Part shown: piece by piece, positions 995 to 40,310 of the stretch
Position numbering within the stretch: the first letter of the stretch is position 1
Layout: each line of letters begins with the position of its first letter
Origin: an uncultured Candidatus Saccharibacteria bacterium
GTDB taxonomy: Bacteria; Patescibacteriota; Minisyncoccia; UBA6257; 2-01-FULL-56-20
DNA: 64,000 bases
Direction of reading: 5' to 3'
NCBI GenBank assembly: GCA_964456235.1
Contig: CAYWDX010000002.1
Location: 78,061 to 142,060, forward strand
The notes under the pieces: generated by a model
What the model was told of the DNA's origin: nothing
The model's input: only the letters and a program-made list of their open reading frames with translations
Database searches by the model: none
Program-made: the position numbers and the translations under genes

Positions 995-1612
995 CTAATG
1001 TTTTGAAAAAGCCTCATCAACTCCCCTCCAATTAACCACATTCCACCAGGCGTCAATGTAATCGGGGCGTTTATTCTGGTATTTCAGATAATATGCGTGT
1101 TCCCAGACATCCAGGCCGAGGATCGGCGTCGCGCCCACCATGAGCGGGCTGTCCTGATTCGGCGTAGTCATGACGAGGATTTTTCCATCGCTATTGCGCG
1201 CAAGCCACGCCCAACCCGATCCGAAAACTCCCGCTGCCGCCTTCGTGAACGCATCTTTAAACCTCGCGAAGTCGCCGAATGTTGCCGCGATCGCATCGGC
1301 GATTTTTCCCGATGGCTCGCCGCCTCCCCCATCCCCCGCGCGAGCCATGATCGTCCAGAAAAAAGAATGGTTCAGATGGCCGCCGCCATGATTACGTACC
1401 GCCATCCGAATGTCTTCCGGAACCTTGGGGAGGTTCGCGAGAAGCGAAGCGAGCGGGGCCTCGGCAATTTCCGGATGCTTGTCGAGCGCCTCATTCAATT
1501 TCGTTACATAGGTTTGATGATGCTTCGTATGGTGAAGCTCCATCGTCTTCGCGTCGATGTACGGCTCGAGCGCGTCGTAGGCGTAAGGAAGTTGTGGGAG
1601 TTCGTATTTCAT
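995..1612 (-). CDS. sodA: Fe/Mn superoxide dismutase
   Basis: 205 aa; [36 protein letters not shown]... and C-terminal DVWEHAYYL are canonical Fe/Mn-SOD motifs. Confidence 0.92.
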
Positions 1613-1629
1613 TGTGATTTTCGTTTAAT

Positions 1630-1635
1630 TATAAT
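1630..1635 (+). promoter_or_regulatory. Candidate -10 (TATAAT) in AT-rich divergent region upstream of tRNA-Gln and sodA
   Basis: tataat at 1630-1635, about 20 nt before the tRNA 5' end; weak -35. The AT-rich stretch also lies upstream of sodA on the opposite strand. Confidence 0.3.
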
Positions 1636-1655
1636 ACATTATGCGGGATGGTAAT

Positions 1656-1729
1656 TGGGGGGTCGTCTAACGGTAGGACAGCGGCCTTTGAAGCCGTGAA
1701 TCGGGGTTCGATTCCCTGCCCCCCAGCCA
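1656..1729 (+). tRNA. tRNA-Gln (anticodon TTG), CCA encoded
   Basis: Cloverleaf: acceptor TGGGGGG/CCCCCCA, D-stem GTCT/GGAC, anticodon stem GCGGC/GCCGT with loop CTTTGAA (TTG), T-arm CGGGG-TTCGATT-CCCTG, discriminator G, then CCA. Confidence 0.85.
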
Positions 1730-10811: not shown

Positions 10812-11759
10812 TTACAATCCGAGCACCTCCGGCGGATGGGCGAGGAACATGATCTCCTCGTTCCACCGGATCGGCTTCACGCCCGGCTGCGGCATGAGCG
10901 CGCAGCAGTCGGCGGGAGCCACGATCGGCCCTTGGCTGCCGTTTGCGATGACTTGGCCCTTGGTGATGAGCTCGAAATTCTGAATCGGCTTCACGAGCTC
11001 GTACCCGGCATCCGGATACCGCACGGCGTCAAAGACCCGGTAAACCCGCTGCTCCCGCTTCGGAGCGAGATGCTCCCGATCGATCACGCCCAGCTTTGCG
11101 AGGAAGGTTTCCGCGCACGTTACGGCGCGCGGGAACGTCTCGGAAGCCTCGTGCCCACCAGCTTCGATGCCGTATACCGCGGCGCGGCCGTCGCCATAGA
11201 AGTAACACGCCGGCTTTCCCGACTGGACTTTCTCGATCCCGGCGAGTACGGTCTCGATGGGGAACCGACGGACCATGCCAGTATCGCTCCGATCAAGCGC
11301 GACAACCATGGGCAGCGTATTCGAGAGCGTGCTGTGGATGTCGAGCGCGTAATCGAATCGCGCCCAAATCCGCTGCAGCTCATACGCCCGCCGGACTTCG
11401 TACCGCGCGTCATCTTTACTCAAGACGTCCGGCAGGCGATTCATGTTCAGATCCGTGAAACGAGCCTGGATCTTTCCCTGGTCGTCGCCCGCATCCAGCG
11501 CCTCGAAATAGCGGCGCATCGCTGCGGGGTTGTTGAGGACAAAGATCACCGTCCCCTTCTGAATGTTCCAGGCATGCCGGCGACGGAATTCGTTGTACAC
11601 CGCGAGTCCGGCCGGTTCGTTACCATGGGTCCCGACGGTGATTCCTACCACCGGACCGGGAGCACCAGAGTCGAGCATCCATACTCCCTGCGCACCGTCC
11701 CGACTTTCGCGCAAGGCGTCGAACGCTTCGCGAAGCATCACTTGGGTTTCACGGTCCAC
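10812..11759 (-). CDS. Succinylglutamate desuccinylase / aspartoacylase (AstE/AspA) family zinc hydrolase
   Basis: 315 aa; GITVGTHGNEPAGL (HGNE zinc-ligand motif of the AstE_AspA family). Confidence 0.8.
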   Translation of the reverse strand: MDRETQVMLREAFDALRESRDGAQGVWMLDSGAPGPVVGITVGTHGNEPAGLAVYNEFRRRHAWNIQKGTVIFVLNNPAAMRRYFEALDAGDDQGKIQARFTDLNMNRLPDVLSKDDARYEVRRAYELQRIWARFDYALDIHSTLSNTLPMVVALDRSDTGMVRRFPIETVLAGIEKVQSGKPACYFYGDGRAAVYGIEAGGHEASETFPRAVTCAETFLAKLGVIDREHLAPKREQRVYRVFDAVRYPDAGYELVKPIQNFELITKGQVIANGSQGPIVAPADCCALMPQPGVKPIRWNEEIMFLAHPPEVLGL

Positions 11760-11829
11760 GTGAACCTCCGTTGGTGTTGGATTTTACTAATGTAAAAGAA
11801 CGTTGGCATTATACCTCTATAATATTTAT

Positions 11830-11861
11830 TTGTCAAGTGTGTGACATATGCGTTGTATAAT
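11830..11861 (+). promoter_or_regulatory. Candidate promoter in the divergent region (TTGTCA ... TATAAT, 20-nt spacer) for the DsbA-like/DsbB pair
   Basis: ttgtca 11830-11835; tataat 11856-11861. The spacer is long, so this is weak. Confidence 0.3.
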
Positions 11862-12254
11862 AGCGTAGTGAACAAAATACAGATTTGGACCTGGATCTTG
11901 GTTGGTATCGCGGGCGCAATGTCGGTATTCGTTTATATAAAAACGCTGCCGCCGCCCGCCGGGAAATACGATTCATTTGCAAAATGCATCGCGAATACTT
12001 CAACCACCTTTTACGGCGCGTTCTGGTGCCCGCATTGCGCAGACCAAAAACGCGCGTTTGGTGATGCGGCAAAATATTTGCCGTACCACGAGTGCTCGAC
12101 GCCCGACGCGCAACACGAGCTCACCTCGTGCGTGGATGCGGGCATCACGCAATATCCAACGTGGCGCTTTCCCGATGGATCGAAGCTCGTCGGTGAGCAA
12201 TCGTTCGAAACACTTTCTGCAAAAACCGGCTGCCCGTTGCCGAGCTCACCGTAA
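11841..12254 (+). CDS. Membrane-anchored thioredoxin-fold thiol:disulfide oxidoreductase (DsbA-like, CPHC active site)
   Basis: N-terminal TM helix, then FYGAFWCPHCADQKRAF (CPHC). The start is uncertain: ATG 11841 overlaps the putative -10; a GTG at 11868 is the alternative. Confidence 0.65.
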   Translation: MTYALYNSVVNKIQIWTWILVGIAGAMSVFVYIKTLPPPAGKYDSFAKCIANTSTTFYGAFWCPHCADQKRAFGDAAKYLPYHECSTPDAQHELTSCVDAGITQYPTWRFPDGSKLVGEQSFETLSAKTGCPLPSSP

Positions 12255-16626: not shown

Positions 16627-17232
16627 CTATGTGATTCGCGTCGCCGCGGCGCGTGCTGCGGCGACGCGCACCGCTCCTTGGCGCAAAATTTTTACGCGCC
16701 CATGTTGAAACGTGATGAGGGTGGAGGGCTTCGCTTTAAATTTTCCTGCATCGATATAGAGCTTCACCGCCGTCCCAAAATATTTTTTCGCTTCACGGAT
16801 GGTGCGCGCGGGCAATTTGCCCTCATGATTGGCGCTTGGCGCCACGAGCGGCCCGGTTTCAAGCAGAAGTTTTCGCAACCAGCTTGGTTTCGGCAGGCGA
16901 AACGCGAGCGTGTGAGTTCCTCGATGCAGATAGGCAAATTTTTTAGATTTTTTTAATGAAAAAATGATGCTGATTTTGCCGGGCCAAAATGATTTCAACG
17001 GCCGGCGCATGCCCGCAGTAACCGTTGCGCCAAAGGCTGCGAGCTGGCTGATATCACCGATCAAAATGATCAGCGGTTTTTTCAAATTTCGCTTCCGCAA
17101 GCGATAGATTCGCCGCACCGCCTTCGGCAACAGCGCCGAGCCGACGATGCCATAGATAGTATCGGTTGGCATCACCACGACTGTTCCGGCACGCAAGCAC
17201 GTAACCGCGTTCGCGAAATCTTTTTTGTGCAT
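16627..17232 (-). CDS. tsaC: L-threonylcarbamoyladenylate synthase (YrdC/TsaC/Sua5 family)
   Basis: 201 aa; VVVMPTDTIYGIVGSAL, the YrdC signature. Confidence 0.85.
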   Translation of the reverse strand: MHKKDFANAVTCLRAGTVVVMPTDTIYGIVGSALLPKAVRRIYRLRKRNLKKPLIILIGDISQLAAFGATVTAGMRRPLKSFWPGKISIIFSLKKSKKFAYLHRGTHTLAFRLPKPSWLRKLLLETGPLVAPSANHEGKLPARTIREAKKYFGTAVKLYIDAGKFKAKPSTLITFQHGRVKILRQGAVRVAAARAAATRIT

Positions 17233-17235
17233 AAA

Positions 17236-18459
17236 TTATTGAGGCGTTGCGAGGTGCGCGAGCGAGCGAGCGCCACGCAATTTTTTGTGGTACTGGATCG
17301 CGAATCGGTGGGCTTCGTCACGCACGCGAACCAGCGTCGCCTTCGGCACACCACATGGTATTGCGCCGATGATGTCGTTTCGTTTGCGTTCCGAACCTTT
17401 CACAATGCCGAGGATCGGGATGTTCAAACTCGCCTGGCGCAGCACGCGACGAGCGGCGCTCACCTGGGCAACACCACCATCAACGAGGATGAGATCCGGC
17501 AGGCGCCAGTTATTTTTAAACCGCCGCGCGAGCATCTCGGTCAGCATGCCAACGTCGTTCGGCTGAAAAATAGTTTTGATTTTGAACTTGCGATAATCGC
17601 TCTTCTTCGGCGCACCGTCCTCAAAAACGACCATGGAACCGACCGCCGAAGTCCCGGAAATATTCGAGATGTCATATCCCTCGATGCGGTAGAGTTCGGC
17701 GTCTTTTGAACGCGGGGCAATAAACGGCGAGTCGGAGATAAGCGAGGTATCGCGGATGTGGCGCAGGGCAAAGAGCTGGTGGCGCAACGCAGTAGCCTTT
17801 TCGAAATCGAGTTCCCCGCTTGCCTCCCTCATTTCTTTTTCGAGCGATCGCAGCACAATTTTCTTTTTTCCGTCCAAAAATAATTTGAGGTGGTCTATAT
17901 TTTTACGGTACTCGCCCCGCGCTATCGCGCCAATGCACGTACCCGGGCAAAGCCCTAGTTCATAGTCAAAGCAGGGACGCGCGAATTTGCCGACACGATC
18001 TGATTCGTGCGTGCTCCAGGGGAAAATCCGGCGCAGCAGGCGCAACGCTTCTCGGGCGCTCGACGCCGAGGTGAATGGTCCCCAGCGATAGCCGCCATGC
18101 CCAGGATCTTTCCCGCGCGCGAGTTGCACGCGCGGAAATGTATCATTCGTTATCTCAATAGAGAGAAAACTTTTATCGTCCTTTTCGCGAACGTTGTAGG
18201 GCGGCAAGAATTTTTTGATGAGCTCGGCCTCGAGGATTAGGGCTTCGAGTGCCGTGTCGGTCGTTTGATGATCGATTTTTCTGATGCGCTGCACGAGCGC
18301 CTCGATGCGCACATCGTGGGGCCGTTCAAAATAGCTTGAAACGCGCCGGCGCAAATTCGCCGCCTTTCCTATATAAAGGATCCGCCCGTCATGATCCTGC
18401 ATCAAATACACCCCGGGCGAATCCGGCAGCGATTTGTAATTTAATTCTTTTTTAATCAT
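17236..18459 (-). CDS. uvrC: Excinuclease ABC subunit C (short form, 407 aa)
   Basis: GIY-YIG ([29 protein letters not shown]) and the C-terminal nuclease motif [12 protein letters not shown]. No terminal (HhH)2 region is apparent. 4-nt overlaps link it to uvrA and tsaC. Confidence 0.85.
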
Positions 18460-21005
18460 TGCTTCAGGGCTTTGCGGAGATAGTGGCCCGTGGCGCTCCC
18501 CGCCTTACGCGCAATATCTTCCGGCGTTCCTGTCGCGACGATCCGCCCGCCACGCTCGCCGCCTTCAGGCCCAAGATCGATCACCCAATCCGTGGTCTTA
18601 ATAACATCAAGGTTATGCTCGATAACGACCACCGTGTTGCCGCGGTCAACCAGGCGCTGCAAAACTTTGACCAGTTGATCCACGTCGGCAAAATGGAGGC
18701 CGGTCGTCGGCTCGTCGAGCAAGTAGAGCGTGCGACGCGTGTCGCGCTTCCCCAGCTCGGCGGAAAGTTTAATGCGCTGCGCCTCGCCGCCCGAGAGCGT
18801 CGTCGCCGACTGGCCAATTCGCAAATAACCAAGACCAACTTCTTCAAGAATGGCGAGTTTTTCATGGAGCCACGGAATGTCTTCAAAAAATTTCACGGCT
18901 TCTTCGACCGTCGTCTGCAAAACATCGTAAATGTTTTTACTCCGATATTCTACTTCGAGGGTTTCGCGATCAAAACGTTTCCCTTTACACACATCGCAGC
19001 TCACATAGACCGTCGGCAGGAAGTGCATCTCGATGGCGATCGTGCCATGGCCTTCGCAGTTCTCACAACGCCCGCCGGGCACGTTAAAGCTGAACCTTCC
19101 CGGCTTGTACCCGCGCACCCGGGCGTCTTCCGTCGCCGCAAAAAGATCGCGGATGTGCGTCCAGGCGCCAATATACGTCGCCGGGTTTGAACGCGGCGTG
19201 CGGCCGATCGCGGCTTGGTCAATATTGATGACGCGATTAATATATTCGAGTCCGAGAATCGATTTGACGCCGCCGGCTTTGAAATTGGCGTGGTTGAGCT
19301 TGTCGGCAATATTTTTATAGAGAACGTCGTAGACGAGGCTCGATTTGCCCGAACCAGAAACGCCGGTCACCGCGATGAAACGCCGGAGCGGAATGTCTAC
19401 GTCGACATCCTTAAGGTTGTTCGCGTGAGCCCCGCGGATTTTCAACGCATCTCCCTCGACGACACCACCCTTGCCGATTTTTACCTTGCGTCGCTCCGCG
19501 GGCACTTCGATAAACTTTTTCCCGCGCAGGTATTGGAGCGTCAGCGAAGTCCTTTTTGCATCTTTAAGAATTTCCGGAATCGGCCCTTGAGCAACGATCT
19601 GCCCGCCATGCACGCCCGCCGCCGGACCAATGTCAACGAGATAATCTGAAGCGCGGATCGTGTCTTCGTCGTGCTCAACCACGACGATCGTGTTGCCGAG
19701 GTCGCGCAAGCCTTGGAGCGTTTTGATGAGCTTTGCATTGTCGCGCTGGTGCAAACCAATCGTTGGTTCGTCCAAAATATAGAGCGTGCCGACGAGGCGC
19801 GATCCGATTTGGGATGCGAGCCGGATGCGCTGCGCCTCGCCGCCCGAAAGGGTGCCCGCCTTGCGGTCGAGCGTGAGGTATTCCAAGCCAACGTCAGCCA
19901 TGAATTTTAATCGGCTTTTAATCTCGCGGAGCGGGGCTTCGGCGACTTCTTCCTGTGACGAACTCTTAAATTTCATTTTCGAGAAAAAGGCCAGCGCGTC
20001 TTCAATGGAAAACGCGGTCACGTTCGTAATGTTTTTATTGTCGATGAGTACATTCAAACTTTCTTCGCGCAAACGTTTGCCACCGCAGACGGCGCAAATC
20101 TCTTCAGACCACAAATCTTTCGTGCCAAGTCCGTGGCATTCGGGACACGCACCGTACGGACTGTTGAATGAAAAAAGGCGCGGCTCGATTTCGGGAAACG
20201 AGAAGCCGTCGTGCGGGCAGGTGAATTTTGCAGAAAGGGAGATTTCTTTGTCGGTGATCACGGTCACGACATCGTTGCCGTATTTGAGGCCGGATTCGAT
20301 CGCTTCGGCGAGGCGCAAACGGTTGTCTTTATCCTTGAAATCCATACCCGCAGGGATCCGGTCTACCACGAGCTCGATCGTGTGCGTGTGGTAGCGCCCG
20401 AGCTCGACGCGTTCGCGCAATGAATGGTAGGTACCATCAATGCGGACTTCGGAAAAACCGGCGCCCAAAAAATCATAGAGCATCTGGTAATATTCGCCCT
20501 TGCGCCCGCGCACGACGGGCGCGAGGATCACCATATTCTTGCGCGGCCCCTTTGGCGCGTTGTTTTCTTTTGCAATATCAATCGCGACGTCAACAATTTC
20601 CTCGGTCGTCAGTTTTTTTATTTCACGCCCGCATTGGGGGCAGAACGGCTTGCCGGCGCGCGCGAAGAGCACGCGGAGATAATCATAAATTTCCGTGATG
20701 GTCGCGACCGTCGAGCGCGGATTCGATGAATGGCTTTTTTGGTCGATCGAAATGGCGGGCGAAAGCCCTTCGATATCATCAACGTCTGGTTTGTCGAGCC
20801 GCCCCAAAAACTGTCGCGCGTAGGCGGAGAGCGATTCGATGTAGCGGCGCTGCCCTTCTGCAAAAATAGTATCGAACGCCAAACTAGACTTGCCGGAACC
20901 AGAAAGGCCGGTGAAGACCACCATGGTGTCGCGCGGGATCGTGAGATCAACGTTTTTCAGGTTGTGCTCGCGGGCCCCTTTGATGATGATTTTGTCGTGT
21001 GCCAT
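18456..21005 (-). CDS. uvrA: Excinuclease ABC subunit A
   Basis: Two ABC ATPase modules ([20 protein letters not shown]), zinc-finger Cys pairs and signature LSGGEAQR x2. The start is placed at [19 protein letters not shown] (the ORF track starts 23 codons earlier). Confidence 0.9.
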
Positions 21006-21180
21006 GTTAATCGATAGATTTTTGGTGAGTCTTAATGAATTCTTAATAACAGCTCGCCCCCGAGCATGGCTCATAGGGGTAGACTAAACGATTCAGTTGT
21101 ATCCCAATTATAAAGATTTGATTAAAACTTTCAACCGCAAAATGATAACCGCGCATCGGCGCGAAATGACGACCGCGAAC

Positions 21181-24705: not shown

Positions 24706-25788
24706 TTATCCCTGCAATGGTCCGGTTACCGGTGTGATGCTCGCACCCACACTAAAGACGGCGGTTTTATCAAGAAACGCTTTTCCGGTGGATCGATCGG
24801 TCCAGGTGGCAACGACGGCGCCGGTCGCCTGGCCGAATTCAGCGGCGGACGCACCGAGGGCCGCCGTGAACACGCCCGATCGGCTGATCGTGCCAATACT
24901 CCCCAGCACCTGCCAACTCGCCGCGCTCGTCACATCTTTTTTAGACCCATCGCTCATCGTGACCGTCGCGGTGAAAGCAACCGTGTTTCCTTCGATAAGA
25001 TTATTTAAAGACGATTTCGCAGCAATAGAAAACGATTTCGGAACTACCGCAACGGCTTGGGAAGCAGGGGCAGACACAACCGGATTACCAACATTGGTTT
25101 CGACCATCGCTGGAGCAGTAACGCCGCTTGCCTGGACTTTCACATCTTCCCCTTCGTTAAATTTTGACCAATCATCCGTTGGTGCGAAAGGTTCCGGGCC
25201 TTTTGCAAAGTCGGTGGAGGCGGTCTGGTCATTCACGACGAGCGCATTTCCTTCCTCGACTACTTTTGCGGACGCTGGATCGGCACGGAGCGCGACGTTC
25301 ACCGCGTGATTACTCACATGAACCTCGCTCGTTCCCGACGCATACCAAACATCGAAAATGGTCCCGCGGACGGTCGCAACCACGGTTGGCGTTTCTACTT
25401 CGTAGGTCCCCCCTGCGGCAAGCGGCTCCACATTGGACCAAGCTTTGCCACTCGAAAGATCAAGCACCGCACTCTTTATTTTTCCATGATCGTAGATGAC
25501 GTCGTGAACCGAAAAGATACTGCCGGCCCCAAGACGCACCGTCGTGCCATCTTTGAAAATAATGGAAGCGCGGCCGTCAGCCGAAACCGTAATCACATCG
25601 CTCGCGCCGATTTCAGTCCCGATGCTTCCTGAAAATTGGGCACTCCCCCGCGCCACTTGCGTCGTACCGGTATAAATATTCAAATTACCGACGGCGGCAA
25701 AGGTCGTGGAGTTCCAATAGAACCAAAATCCTGCAGCGACGATAATGACTGCCGCTCCAACCATCCACTTCATTTTCGACTTGTTCAT
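24706..25788 (-). CDS. FecR-domain protein (TM-anchored), partner of the CHASE2 cyclase
   Basis: 360 aa; N-terminal TM; the FecR-like region lies 4 nt upstream of the cyclase. Confidence 0.55.
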   Translation of the reverse strand: MNKSKMKWMVGAAVIIVAAGFWFYWNSTTFAAVGNLNIYTGTTQVARGSAQFSGSIGTEIGASDVITVSADGRASIIFKDGTTVRLGAGSIFSVHDVIYDHGKIKSAVLDLSSGKAWSNVEPLAAGGTYEVETPTVVATVRGTIFDVWYASGTSEVHVSNHAVNVALRADPASAKVVEEGNALVVNDQTASTDFAKGPEPFAPTDDWSKFNEGEDVKVQASGVTAPAMVETNVGNPVVSAPASQAVAVVPKSFSIAAKSSLNNLIEGNTVAFTATVTMSDGSKKDVTSAASWQVLGSIGTISRSGVFTAALGASAAEFGQATGAVVATWTDRSTGKAFLDKTAVFSVGASITPVTGPLQG

Positions 25789-29096: not shown

Positions 29097-29774
29097 TTAT
29101 ACCGGCGCCTCAATCTTATATCCATAGCCATGGACCGTATGGAGTAATTTCTTTTTGAATGGGTCGTCAATTTTCTGACGCAGGTAGCGCATGTGGACGT
29201 CCACCGTATTTGTGAAGGGGTCAGCATTCATATCCCACACATGTTCCAGGATCATGCTCCGCGTGAGGATCACGCCCGGGTTGCGCATAAAATATTCGAG
29301 GAGCGCGAATTGCTTGCGCGTTATGCGGATCGTTTTCCCGGCGCGCACCACCGATTGCATCTGAATATCCACGACAAGATCGTGGATGATGAGCACCGGC
29401 CCGGTCACTTTTCGCTCGCGCCGCAGGAGCGCATTCGCCCGTGCGAGGAGCTCGCTGAACACGAACGGCTTTGATAAATAATCATCAGCGCCGATATTCA
29501 GCGCCCGCACCTTGGTCGCTGCATCGCCCGTAACCGTGAGCATGATGATCGGGTAGGTTCGGCCCGCCGCGCGCGTCTCGCGACAAACGTCAATGCCGGT
29601 CAATGTGCCAGCCAGCCGGATATCAAAAATGCCGAGGTCATAATCATTCACCTTGGCCCACACGAGGCCGCGCTCACCCGTCTCTGCCCAATCAATCGAG
29701 AAATTTCGCCGCATGAGCCCCTCGCGAATCGATCCCGCCAGATTCCGTTCATCCTCCAAAAGCAATATGCGCAT
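29097..29774 (-). CDS. Response regulator, OmpR/PhoB family (receiver + winged helix)
   Basis: 225 aa; MRILLLEDE...D(52)...LTVTGD...KPF, then trans_reg_C (TRKQFALLEYFMRNPGVILTRSMILEHVW). It lies 8 nt upstream of nth and has no adjacent kinase. Confidence 0.85.
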   Translation of the reverse strand: MRILLLEDERNLAGSIREGLMRRNFSIDWAETGERGLVWAKVNDYDLGIFDIRLAGTLTGIDVCRETRAAGRTYPIIMLTVTGDAATKVRALNIGADDYLSKPFVFSELLARANALLRRERKVTGPVLIIHDLVVDIQMQSVVRAGKTIRITRKQFALLEYFMRNPGVILTRSMILEHVWDMNADPFTNTVDVHMRYLRQKIDDPFKKKLLHTVHGYGYKIEAPV

Positions 29775-29861
29775 GGTTTTCTTTTGATCCTGCCATACGG
29801 GACATTAAGAAAAGTTAAAGGGCCGGCCGGTGGGACGCGAGCGCTGATTTGAGGCTCGAAC

Positions 29862-29889
29862 TTGACAGATTATATGGACTTGGTACAAT
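29862..29889 (+). promoter_or_regulatory. Near-consensus sigma70 promoter (TTGACA-16-TACAAT) for an orphan small RNA
   Basis: ttgaca 29862-29867, 16-nt spacer, tacaat 29884-29889. No ORF follows. Confidence 0.55.
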
Positions 29890-29892
29890 CGT

Positions 29893-30034
29893 ATCCAGTT
29901 CCATTTTGGAAGGGTTTATGCCGATCCCGAGTGCCGGCTGCCCCTTCCCTGCGCGGTAGAGCCCAGACGAACGAGGGGGTGAGCTCCCGCGCAATCGCAA
30001 GGGGCGTCGATTGATTCGACGCCCCTTATTGTTT
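29893..30034 (+). ncRNA. Candidate small RNA (~140 nt), family not recognised
   Basis: Bounded by the promoter above and an intrinsic terminator. It has three predicted hairpins: GGAAGGG...CCCUUCC (29909-29949), UGCGCGG...CCGCGCA (29951-29993) and the terminator stem. It is not a leader for any downstream gene (the next gene is convergent). Confidence 0.45.
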
Positions 30035-30036
30035 TT
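30000..30036. terminator. Intrinsic terminator (plus-strand sRNA; possibly also serves the convergent FKBP gene)
   Basis: GGGGCGTCGA (30001-30010) / TCGACGCCCC (30016-30025), loop TTGAT, then TTATTGTTTTT on the plus strand. Confidence 0.6.
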
Positions 30037-30054
30037 AATGCTTTTTTAATTTTT

Positions 30055-30549
30055 CTACTGACCCGCGGCGCTGGTCGAAACCGAGAGAAGCTCGACAACA
30101 AAATGAAGCGTCGCATTGGCCGGAATCACCGATCCGGCACCGGCGGCACCATAGGCGAGTTCGGGAGGAATCGTAAGTTCGCGCTTGCCGCCCACCTTCA
30201 TGCCAAGAACACCGTAATCCCACCCCTTGATCACCTGTCCGGCGCCAAGAAGGAAGCTGAACGGCTGCTTGCGGTCATAGGAACTGTCAAACTTTGTGCC
30301 GTTCATGAGCGTGCCAACATAATTCACCGTCACCGTTTCGCCATTTTTGGCTTCGGCACCGGTTCCTACCACGAGATTAGTTATTTTCAGGTTTTCCATA
30401 AGTCGCTGTTGGGCTTGCGCTACGGCACTGTCGGCAATCGCTTGCGCCTGGCGGGCTTCTTCTTCAGATTTTTGATTATACCAGATTGAAAGCCAAATAA
30501 TGCCGACGGCGAGAACTGTAAAAAGAATTCCGGAAACCACTTTTTTCAT
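30055..30549 (-). CDS. FKBP-type peptidyl-prolyl cis-trans isomerase, membrane-anchored
   Basis: 164 aa; N-terminal TM, then the FKBP domain VTVNYVGTLMNGTKFDSSYDRKQPFSFLLGAGQVIKGWDYGVLGMKVGGKRELTIPPELAYG. Confidence 0.85.
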   Translation of the reverse strand: MKKVVSGILFTVLAVGIIWLSIWYNQKSEEEARQAQAIADSAVAQAQQRLMENLKITNLVVGTGAEAKNGETVTVNYVGTLMNGTKFDSSYDRKQPFSFLLGAGQVIKGWDYGVLGMKVGGKRELTIPPELAYGAAGAGSVIPANATLHFVVELLSVSTSAAGQ

Positions 30550-30581
30550 TTTTCTTTAATGAAAGTTTTATTAAGAAAACA

Positions 30582-30899
30582 TTAAGAAACGTGGGCGCCG
30601 GGCGGGACGGGCTTATCCGGCATCACGAGAAACGGCAGACCGTCGTCTCCATGCGCGGCGAGGAGCATGCCCTGGCTTTCAAGCCCCATAAGTTTCCGCG
30701 GCTCGAGGTTTGCGATCACAACTACCTCGCGCCCCACCAGTTCCTCTGGAGTATACGTCTTCCCGATGCCCGATACAATCTGTCGGGGTTCGCCGATATC
30801 AATTTGCAGCTTGATAAGTTTTTCCGAATCGGGCACGCGCTCGGCCGCAAGGATTTTTGCCACGCGCAAATCAACTTGCTTGAATTCGTCTATCGTCAC
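30582..30899 (-). CDS. tRNA-binding domain protein (CsaA/Trbp111/EMAP-like OB fold)
   Basis: 105 aa; DLRVAKILAAERVPDSEKLIKLQIDIGE...SGI... is the typical MetRS-C/CsaA tRNA-binding domain. Confidence 0.8.
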   Translation of the reverse strand: MTIDEFKQVDLRVAKILAAERVPDSEKLIKLQIDIGEPRQIVSGIGKTYTPEELVGREVVVIANLEPRKLMGLESQGMLLAAHGDDGLPFLVMPDKPVPPGAHVS

Positions 30900-39332: not shown

Positions 39333-39361
39333 TTGACATATATCGCATTACGATATATAAT
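39333..39361 (+). promoter_or_regulatory. Perfect-consensus sigma70 promoter TTGACA-17-TATAAT with an embedded operator-like palindrome
   Basis: ttgaca 39333-39338; tataat 39356-39361. The spacer contains the palindrome TATATCG-cattA-CGATATA. Confidence 0.6.
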
Positions 39362-39394: not shown

Positions 39395-39447
39395 TTGAGA
39401 CGGGCGTTCTGTGAGCCAGCAACTGACTCCTAGAACGCTCGTCTCAA
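39395..39447 (+). promoter_or_regulatory. Stable 5'-UTR hairpin (15/16-bp stem, 21-nt loop) ahead of the GC-rich membrane-protein gene
   Basis: ttgagacgggcgttct (39395-39410) pairs with agaacgctcgtctcaa (39432-39447). The alternative GTG start at 39411 lies in the loop. A true AAGGAG SD is at 39492-39497. Confidence 0.4.
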
Positions 39448-39503
39448 TCAGGCGTGCCCAGTGCCCGCAAGGGCTCTTGGAATTTCTCCACAAGGAGTTC
39501 CCT

Positions 39504-40310
39504 ATGAAGACCAGTCACAAGGTTTTCCTGGCGTGCGCCTTCGGCGGGTTCATCGGCGCATTTGTCGCGCTGTGGCTCAGTCACTACGACTCACTCTTCG
39601 CGTTCGTGGGCTTCGCCATCGGCGGCTTCACGGGCTACTTGAGCTACAACATCCACGAGGTCATCGCGGCCATTCTGCAGGCGTGGGCGTCGGCGACGAA
39701 CTGGCGGCCGGACAAGGCGTGGTGGCGGATGTGCTGTCAGGAGCTGCTTCGCTACTATGGCTTCGCGCTGACGGTAGTCACCGGCGTCGCGATGTTCGTT
39801 TGTGGGGCTGCCTCTATTGCCGAGCCAAAATTTCCAGAAAATCTTTTGATGTTCGCTTGCATACTTGTCCTTTTCTGGACGACCGTCTTGGTCTCCGGGA
39901 TACCCCTGACTTTTTTCTGGAAGGACGGGGGAGTTCTGGAAATTCGGGCTTGGATGGGTCCAGTGCCAGACGTGAGCCCGTTCAAGTTTTACGGCTATAC
40001 GCTGCCCAAGTTCTTCCTCTGGATGGGGCTCAAGGCGCTCGCCACCCTGATCGGCGCTCTCGGTGTTTGTACGCCCGGCGCCACCATGGTGCTGTTCCGC
40101 TTCTTCCGGAATCTCATCCAACGGATCCATTCGGATGTTCGCGTCGTGTGCGCGGTGGATGCCATGCTCGGCGCCGTCGCCGGGTACTTCTTCCACGATC
40201 CGTGGGTCGGTGCTCTGATTGGCGGAGTGCTGGGGGTCTTGAACTATGAGATCCTCTCCATCCGCATCTTCAAGCTCGTACCGGCGACGCAGTCGATGTT
40301 CAGTCGCTAG
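39504..40310 (+). CDS. Hypothetical polytopic membrane protein (about 7 TM), visibly GC-richer than its neighbours
   Basis: The start is taken at the ATG at 39504 with AAGGAG 7 nt upstream (the ORF track starts at GTG 39411). Product MKTSHKVFLACAFGGFIGAFVALWL...; no recognised family. All six frames are open across it, consistent with high G+C. Confidence 0.6.
   Translation: MKTSHKVFLACAFGGFIGAFVALWLSHYDSLFAFVGFAIGGFTGYLSYNIHEVIAAILQAWASATNWRPDKAWWRMCCQELLRYYGFALTVVTGVAMFVCGAASIAEPKFPENLLMFACILVLFWTTVLVSGIPLTFFWKDGGVLEIRAWMGPVPDVSPFKFYGYTLPKFFLWMGLKALATLIGALGVCTPGATMVLFRFFRNLIQRIHSDVRVVCAVDAMLGAVAGYFFHDPWVGALIGGVLGVLNYEILSIRIFKLVPATQSMFSR

Follow-up and report, generated by a model that had tools for sequence, protein, structure and literature searches.

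In enterobacteria, orphan sRNAs and other short transcripts are known to emerge from decayed genes or from spurious promoters. In the same bacteria, some sRNAs are controlled by two-component systems, such as OmrA/OmrB by OmpR and MgrR by PhoP. Among housekeeping RNAs, the small SRP RNA is defined by a covariance-model match that includes the domain IV hairpin and its conserved loops, and tmRNA by a tRNA-like domain and a tag ORF. For CPR/Patescibacteria, our literature search found nothing usable on leaderless translation or sRNAs.

In this work, we analyzed a predicted transcription unit of about 140 nt, located between the genes for an OmpR-family response regulator (RR) and a membrane-anchored FKBP in a 64-kb stretch of DNA from the genome of a Paceibacteria-type CPR bacterium (the whole stretch is referred to as the window). 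This unit resembles the enterobacterial sRNAs derived from gene wrecks in having its own promoter and Rho-independent terminator, a lineage-restricted distribution, no conserved structure, and a location that is occupied by a protein-coding gene in relatives. It differs from them in that its descent is argued from position and promoter, and that it is known here from sequence. Similar to OmrA/OmrB and MgrR, it would be a short terminator-ended RNA near a direct repeat of the RR-binding type. However, this repeat lies 42 nt from the -35 hexamer, and the unit has no conserved seed, no target evidence, and no sequence relation to those sRNAs. The likeness to the bacterial small SRP (4.5S) RNA (RF00169) is limited to length; there is no model match and no domain IV motif, and the unit is not conserved at this position in relatives. 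Overall, we class the unit as an orphan transcription unit whose general kind is known, and probably as a gene remnant.

Promoter, Terminator, and Neighboring Genes

The coordinates of all features are provided in Table 1. The + strand promoter (TTGACA-16-TGgTACAAT, 29862-29889) matches 11 of the 12 consensus positions of sigma-70 promoters, which are defined by a -35 TTGACA, a -10 TATAAT, a spacer of 16-18 nt, and an optional TGn; its spacer is 16 nt. The first-pass annotation described this site as a promoter with no ORF behind it, and this description holds because no ORF of more than 13 codons was found downstream of the predicted start site (about 29897). Sites with at least 11/12 matches occur four times in the window, compared to 0.41 expected from shuffles. 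The other three are all in the correct orientation and directly precede long ORFs, so such sites appear to be used promoters here. Being of the consensus type, the promoter of the unit is probably activator-independent. In 10 of 49 genes in the window, a -10 hexamer (at least 5/6) is positioned with its end 5-9 nt ahead of the start codon, which suggests that leaderless mRNAs are common in this CPR genome. No start codon lies 5-9 nt past the promoter of the unit, so it drives no leaderless gene. Shine-Dalgarno-like motifs precede only four of the 44 long genes in the window.

The terminator has the G+C-rich hairpin and the immediate U-run on the transcribed strand that define intrinsic terminators. 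The presence of a terminator had been noted in the first-pass annotation, but its stem is a perfect 12 bp (eight G-C pairs) rather than 10 bp, followed by ATTGTTTTTAATGCTTTTTT. The hairpin begins about 110 nt past the promoter and lies 28 nt from the FKBP stop codon. The T-run is found on the + strand only, while the minus strand past the hairpin reads GCGATTGCGCGGG. This polarity implies that a + strand transcript ends there. The T-rich stretch past the terminator (inverted repeats I2 and I4) was considered as a second copy of the RR box described below and rejected, as it contains no match to the box pattern within three mismatches.

Table 1. Locations of the features in the window and of the cassettes in related loci.
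Feature	Location	Strand	Basis
Other near-consensus promoter site (11-12/12), just upstream of long ORF 10812..11759	11808-11836	-	
Other near-consensus promoter site (11-12/12), just upstream of long ORF 18456..21074	21107-21134	-	
OmpR-family response regulator (RR) gene, divergent neighbor	29097..29774	-	ORF list
Conserved RR box, direct repeat (period 10 bp; RR strand CTTTAACTTTTCTTAATGT, TTTTA-N5-TTTTA)	29802..29820	-	Comparison with relatives
-35 hexamer TTGACA	29862..29867	+	Consensus match
Promoter-like site TGGATA-17-TATAAT (10/12), towards RR gene	29869..29897	-	Promoter scan
Extended -10, TGg (29881-29883) and TACAAT (29884-29889)	29881..29889	+	Consensus match
Predicted transcript body	29897..29998	+	Start inferred at about 7-8 nt past the -10
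Stem-loop 1, GGAAGGG/CCCUUCC with inner GCCG/CGGC (arms 29908-14 and 29942-48)	29908..29948	+	MFE structure, inverted repeat I6
13-codon ATG micro-ORF, peptide MPIPSAGCPFPAR followed by a stop codon	29918..29959	+	ORF list
Stem-loop 2, UGCGCGG..GAGC/GCUC..CCGCGCA (arms 29950-59 and 29984-93)	29950..29993	+	MFE structure, inverted repeat I3
11-codon GTG micro-ORF, peptide MSSRAIARGVD followed by a stop codon, runs into the terminator	29979..30014	+	ORF list
Intrinsic terminator, 12-bp stem, 5-nt loop, and T-run (hairpin 29999-30027)	29999..30036	+	Terminator search, inverted repeat I1
Membrane-anchored FKBP gene, convergent neighbor	30055..30549	-	ORF list
Other near-consensus promoter site (11-12/12), just upstream of long ORF 39411..40310	39333-39361	+	
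Cassette	L084 1591-1910	-	Leader and ORF comparison
Cassette	L085 1621-1905	-	Leader and ORF comparison
Cassette	L087 1-272	-	Leader and ORF comparison
Cassette	L091 about 11600-11997	-	Leader and ORF comparison
Cassette	L124 about 1350-1663	-	Leader and ORF comparison
Cassette	L126 106-399	-	Leader and ORF comparison
Cassette with a leader of about 290 nt	L129 about 1240-1638	+	Leader and ORF comparison
Cassette	L137 1386-1677	+	Leader and ORF comparison

Both neighboring genes lie on the minus strand, FKBP convergent with the unit and RR divergent from it. The unit also precedes no + strand gene, in agreement with the first-pass annotation that it lies between two protein-coding genes and is not a 5' leader. 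A box of about 20 nt, which looks like a putative OmpR-family binding site, is located upstream of the RR gene in the window and also beside the RR start in L082-L085, L087, L091, L124, and L126, between the RR gene and the divergent promoter. The window copy is most similar to the one in L087, which also has the most closely related RR protein by sequence identity. The distance between the box and the -35 hexamer, which is occupied by G+C-rich sequence (29821-29861) in the window, is 8-18 nt in relatives.

A 10/12 promoter-like site is also present on the minus strand, in full overlap with the + strand promoter; if used, it would start the RR transcript with an 88-nt leader including the RR box. 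A search for minus-strand intrinsic terminators from the FKBP stop codon to the start of the RR gene (29775-30054) found none.

Predicted Fold and Comparison With Known RNA Families

The two additional stem-loops reported in the first-pass annotation are present in the MFE structure, but they are no more stable than chance and are what a sequence of 60% G+C gives. Without the terminator, the 102-nt body has a folding energy of -38.8 kcal/mol, compared to -35.6 +/- 3.6 kcal/mol for shuffled sequences (z = -0.89); 33 of 200 shuffles fold as well. The reverse strand of the body has a z of -1.54. The z of -3.4 obtained for the whole RNA thus comes from the terminator.

At gathering thresholds, an Rfam search of the whole window found four tRNAs only. 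In a permissive scan (E<=10) of the 331 nt at 29750-30080, we found sub-threshold noise, mostly from the terminator hairpin, and no match to SRP RNA, 6S RNA, RNase P RNA, or tmRNA. ARAGORN found no tmRNA, and direct reading of the sequence found no SRP domain IV motif. These results agree with the first-pass assessment that this is a short transcription unit of its own with no recognized RNA family. However, its suggestion of a 4.5S-type SRP RNA found no SRP signal even at the permissive threshold. The broader idea of a structured RNA from a new or housekeeping family is also not supported, given the chance-level stability of the stems and the absence of the unit from orthologous spacers. As a caution, a perfect promoter-terminator pair around foldable GC-rich sequence does not make an RNA family.

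The distribution of the unit is narrow. No second copy was found in the 64-kb window, and the identical sequence was found in only one NCBI assembly and one Logan assembly (sample SRR12313479).

Orthologous Loci and the Small Membrane-Protein Cassette

Homologs of the RR protein were found by the hundreds at 60-70% identity, with names assigned to Paceibacterota, Minisyncoccia, or Patescibacteria; the best match is 70% identical and none is closer. The gene order tRNA_bind-FKBP-RR-Nth(-UvrB) is conserved. Among the nine orthologous loci compared, six (L084, L085/86, L087, L091, L124, and L126) have a cassette in the FKBP-RR spacer, always in the same place and orientation. The spacer is 450-520 nt in L084, L085/86, L091, and L124, and the short contigs L087 and L126 have the same insert on the RR side. 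The other three loci (L082, L083, and L088) have spacers of 51-92 nt without the cassette, so its complete loss is recurrent. One of these, L088, is the closest relative by FKBP (74%) and among the closest by Nth (79%). In relatives without the cassette, such as L083, a bidirectional terminator was observed in this spacer.

Conservation of the region, on which the first-pass annotation had made its small RNA depend, is poor; the spacers of all nine relatives are either empty or contain an unrelated leader and small ORF. No sequence related to the 140 nt of the window was found in these loci or in any other fetched locus, where the closest relatives have only 70% RR identity. Furthermore, no ORF-less unit homologous to that of the window was seen in any relative.

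Several candidates were rejected as orthologous loci. The 222-aa RRs (P0006 and P0023; L125, L127, and L128) are paralogs in an RR-histidine kinase operon; those of the L127/L128 operon are 67-69% identical to the RR of the window and are not orthologs of this orphan RR. Upstream of the paralogous operon, eight tandem copies of the heptamer CTAATCG were observed (L127 1150-1205 and L128 355-410). A profile search of genome contigs with the RR-ortholog alignment was dominated by generic OmpR-family peptides and led only to distant regulators from other phyla.

The cassette is located on the strand opposite to the RR gene and starts just past the conserved 20-nt box (ACATTAAAAGATTCTAAAAT). It consists of a promoter (TTGACA-16/18-TAnAAT), a leader of 129-157 nt, an ORF of 45-60 aa, and a terminator convergent with FKBP. 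In L126, the promoter region is shorter and has no clear -35. The ORF encodes a single-pass membrane protein with the motif MxxAIGF..GIFMPDVL[RH]AL..FLL..KATAF.Q.MP... In a collection of 5.8 billion proteins, this family comprises 39 clusters (P0121-P0159), most of which are unnamed, and all named ones are "hypothetical". None of these 39 clusters has a Pfam domain, and one is named Parcubacteria. The leader and the ORF were also found together away from the RR locus, with recG as the neighbor in L129 and a DoxX gene nearby in L137; therefore, the leader belongs to the small gene.

The leader contains a long hairpin (P1) of 20 pairs, six of which have compensatory changes, that sequesters an invariant CCGCAGGAGGAAGGCC. 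It also contains two small hairpins (P2 and P3), for which 89% of cells are paired and six double changes were observed, compared to 1.6 expected. By eye, a CAUGGCC segment of the leader is able to base-pair with GGCCAUG around the start codon; compensatory variants are seen in L087, L126, L137, and L124. No Rfam match was found for this leader. The leader is a candidate cis-regulatory RNA, undescribed, in front of an unannotated small membrane protein that is specific to Parcubacteria.

A metagenome scan with the leader core resulted in 36 loci. Five of these are genuine and represent four distinct sequences (L091, L093, L112, and L124; L100 is a partial copy of L124), and the remaining matches are due to chance, apart from the doubtful L123. 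The match in L123 (1376-1478, minus strand) is weak and 5'-truncated, with 26 bits for covariance model R1 and 21.7 bits for R2, and the next ORF is unrelated to the small membrane protein. It may represent a divergent use of the leader, or chance.

Comparison of the Unit With the Cassette

Compared to the Paceibacteria/Parcubacteria cassette (L084, L085, L087, L091, L093, L112, L124, L126, L129, and L137; P0121-P0159), the unit in the window has the same FKBP-RR slot, strand, type of promoter beside the RR box, and convergent terminator, and it shares two promoter 7-mers with L087 and L112. In contrast, it lacks the CCGCAGGAGGAAGGCC core, the P1, P2, and P3 helices, and the ORF, and it is about 140 nt long rather than 350-400 nt. 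Positional orthology is therefore found in slot, strand, and flanking signals, while no alignable residue indicates descent of the interior from the leader, the ORF, or the 3' UTR.

The two shared 7-mers are ATATGGA in the 16-nt promoter spacer, as in L087, and TATCCAG at the first bases of the predicted start site, as in L112. Two such anchored matches were obtained in 0.03% of 20,000 shuffles (p about 3e-4), a test that was devised post hoc with the matches already seen.

For the interior, all searches with the leader were negative. The nhmmer leader profile did not match the locus; its best match in the window (25409-25449, E = 0.028) falls within the coding sequence of a 360-aa protein and was attributed to chance. 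Covariance model R1, run on the whole window with filters off, found no match in 29800-30060. When the 161 nt at 29880-30040 were scored alone, R1 gave 1.9 bits and R2 (3' half) 0 bits, compared to 52-127 bits for true members. Searches with the protein were also negative. The small-protein HMM (39 members), run against six frames of the window, ranked the frames of the candidate below 1000 of 2732, and tblastn with the small protein found nothing in the window. The 11-codon GTG ORF, the start of which (MSSRAIA..) was considered as a remnant of the N-terminus MSxAIGF, has no HMM support.

In pairwise DNA alignments between the interior of the unit and eight cassettes, the scores were within the range of shuffles. 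The single nominal match (p = 0.045 in one of eight tests) is CCTGCGCGRTAGA, which is common to the interior of the unit and the end of the L126 ORF. The end of the 13-residue peptide, CCTGCGCGGTAGA, also resembles the end of the L126 ORF (IPAR followed by a stop codon), but this resemblance is not significant. A test of the peptide against the C-terminal tails of the family gave p = 0.7 (best match) and p = 0.18 (mean). Three by-eye alignments of the interior failed formal tests: one placed it against the 3' half of the leader, another against the 5' strand of P1, and a third against the C-terminal codons, the stop, and the 3' UTR of L126. GC-rich sequence with much CCUCC/GGAGG is easily matched by eye, and since these three alignments of the same stretch were mutually exclusive, such resemblances mean little here.

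Origin and Possible Function

The explanation that we favor, and to which we give about an even chance, is that the unit is what remains of a collapsed small-protein cassette; it would probably still be transcribed but have no function of its own. A single internal deletion spanning the conserved core of the leader together with the conserved ORF segment would leave both ends in place. Between them, ~100 nt of poorly conserved sequence would be left, from the beginning of the leader, the variable tail of the ORF, and the 3' UTR. Such segments are not expected to align at this evolutionary distance, which would account for the combination of intact ends and an unalignable interior. RNA polymerase would then start at the consensus promoter and stop at the terminator, producing a short RNA without conserved structure or coding capacity. 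We infer that the unit is transcribed, that it descended by internal deletion, and that it has no conserved RNA function.

The evidence for a remnant includes the synteny, the cassette in the same slot of six of the nine loci with recurrent loss in the other three, the promoter 7-mers, the conserved RR box, and the terminator that is polar for the + strand. The lack of structure beyond chance in the body, the absence of Rfam matches and of other copies, and the finding that consensus promoters in the window otherwise precede genes also point in this direction. Because the interior has no supported similarity, descent from the cassette is argued from position and promoter only. Against a remnant, it is equally conceivable that selection maintains the transcript, since its interior has decayed while the promoter and terminator are near-perfect. 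Any effect of a remnant would probably be local, through promoter competition, antisense pairing, or collision with FKBP read-through. Given the full overlap of the + strand promoter with the minus-strand 10/12 site, occupancy of one should exclude the other. Furthermore, as FKBP has no minus-strand terminator, its transcripts should run antisense through the unit towards the RR gene.

A second explanation is a lineage-specific regulatory small RNA. Such an RNA, perhaps born from the cassette and expressed from a strong and possibly RR-influenced promoter, could act by base pairing in trans, or in cis as an antisense RNA or by collision with FKBP transcripts. The near-consensus promoter with its extended -10, the perfect terminator, the interior unrelated to the cassette, the lack of a minus-strand terminator in the FKBP-RR interval, the overlapping promoter-like site, and the RR box 42 nt upstream are all consistent with this possibility. 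Yet the body folds no better than shuffles, the interior is related to no fetched locus, and no relative was seen to have a homologous ORF-less unit. When the unit was tested for duplexes with the 62 gene starts of the window, the result also remained at control level (72% of shuffles did as well). We therefore regard a regulatory sRNA as a tentative and rather unlikely explanation. Its more specific form is a functional riboregulator that was exapted from a gene wreck, took over the small membrane-protein slot beside the orphan RR, and became tied to an RR/FKBP regulon. It might act through transcription convergent with FKBP, whose transcripts lack a terminator, or by competing with the promoter of the RR gene; this is speculative and decidedly unlikely. 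Alternatively, promoter and hairpin may be a chance juxtaposition with no discrete transcript, in which the promoter-like site is silent or serves the minus strand and the hairpin is the FKBP terminator. The 10/12 site at the same place on the opposite strand and the 28 nt between the FKBP stop codon and the hairpin fit this scenario. It is nonetheless improbable, given that 11/12 matches with a TG are rare here and the other three such sites precede genes, that the T-run is on the + strand only, and that relatives have a real gene in the same orientation at the same place.

The coding and housekeeping alternatives are the least likely. The 13-residue peptide could be the product of a micro-protein gene, perhaps a C-terminal fragment left from the ancestral small protein. 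Its ATG is 21 nt past the predicted start, in an unpaired internal loop, and the peptide sequence is reminiscent of the Pro/Ala-rich family tails (..MPTSPA.. and ..IPAR at the C-terminus). Since Shine-Dalgarno motifs are hardly used in this genome, the absence of one is no argument against translation. However, the tail similarity is at the level of chance, there is no HMM signal, the conserved transmembrane core of the family is missing, and the ORF is not at the 5' end, unlike many leaderless genes here; this makes a micro-protein very improbable. As for a divergent 4.5S SRP, 6S, RNase P, or transfer-messenger RNA missed by standard models, CPR housekeeping RNAs can be atypical, and both the length (about 140 nt) and the strong promoter would suit such a gene. 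This idea is effectively refuted by the negative results of the permissive scan, of ARAGORN, and of the search for an SRP domain IV motif; moreover, a housekeeping RNA would be conserved, yet it is absent from the orthologous spacers of relatives.

As an unconserved short transcription unit found in a single genome, the element itself matters little. If functional, it would join a very short list of candidate sRNAs in CPR bacteria and would illustrate how a non-coding transcript can take the place of a small-protein gene. The more promising lead is the conserved leader and small-protein cassette that relatives have beside an orphan OmpR-type regulator with a direct-repeat box, which provides a testable candidate cis-regulatory RNA.

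The reach of this regulator may extend to FKBP. We observed a tandem TTTCTTAAT repeat (TTTCTTAATG TTTTCTTAATA; 10-bp period) at 30565-30588 on the minus strand, 20-40 nt upstream of the FKBP start and overlapping the end of the tRNA_bind gene. This repeat resembles half of the RR box and fits the RR-box pattern, which has three matches in the window, compared to 0.2 expected; the third is at 16942-16958. Based on the repeat upstream of FKBP, the FKBP gene, the RR gene, and, in relatives, the small-protein cassette may form one regulon.
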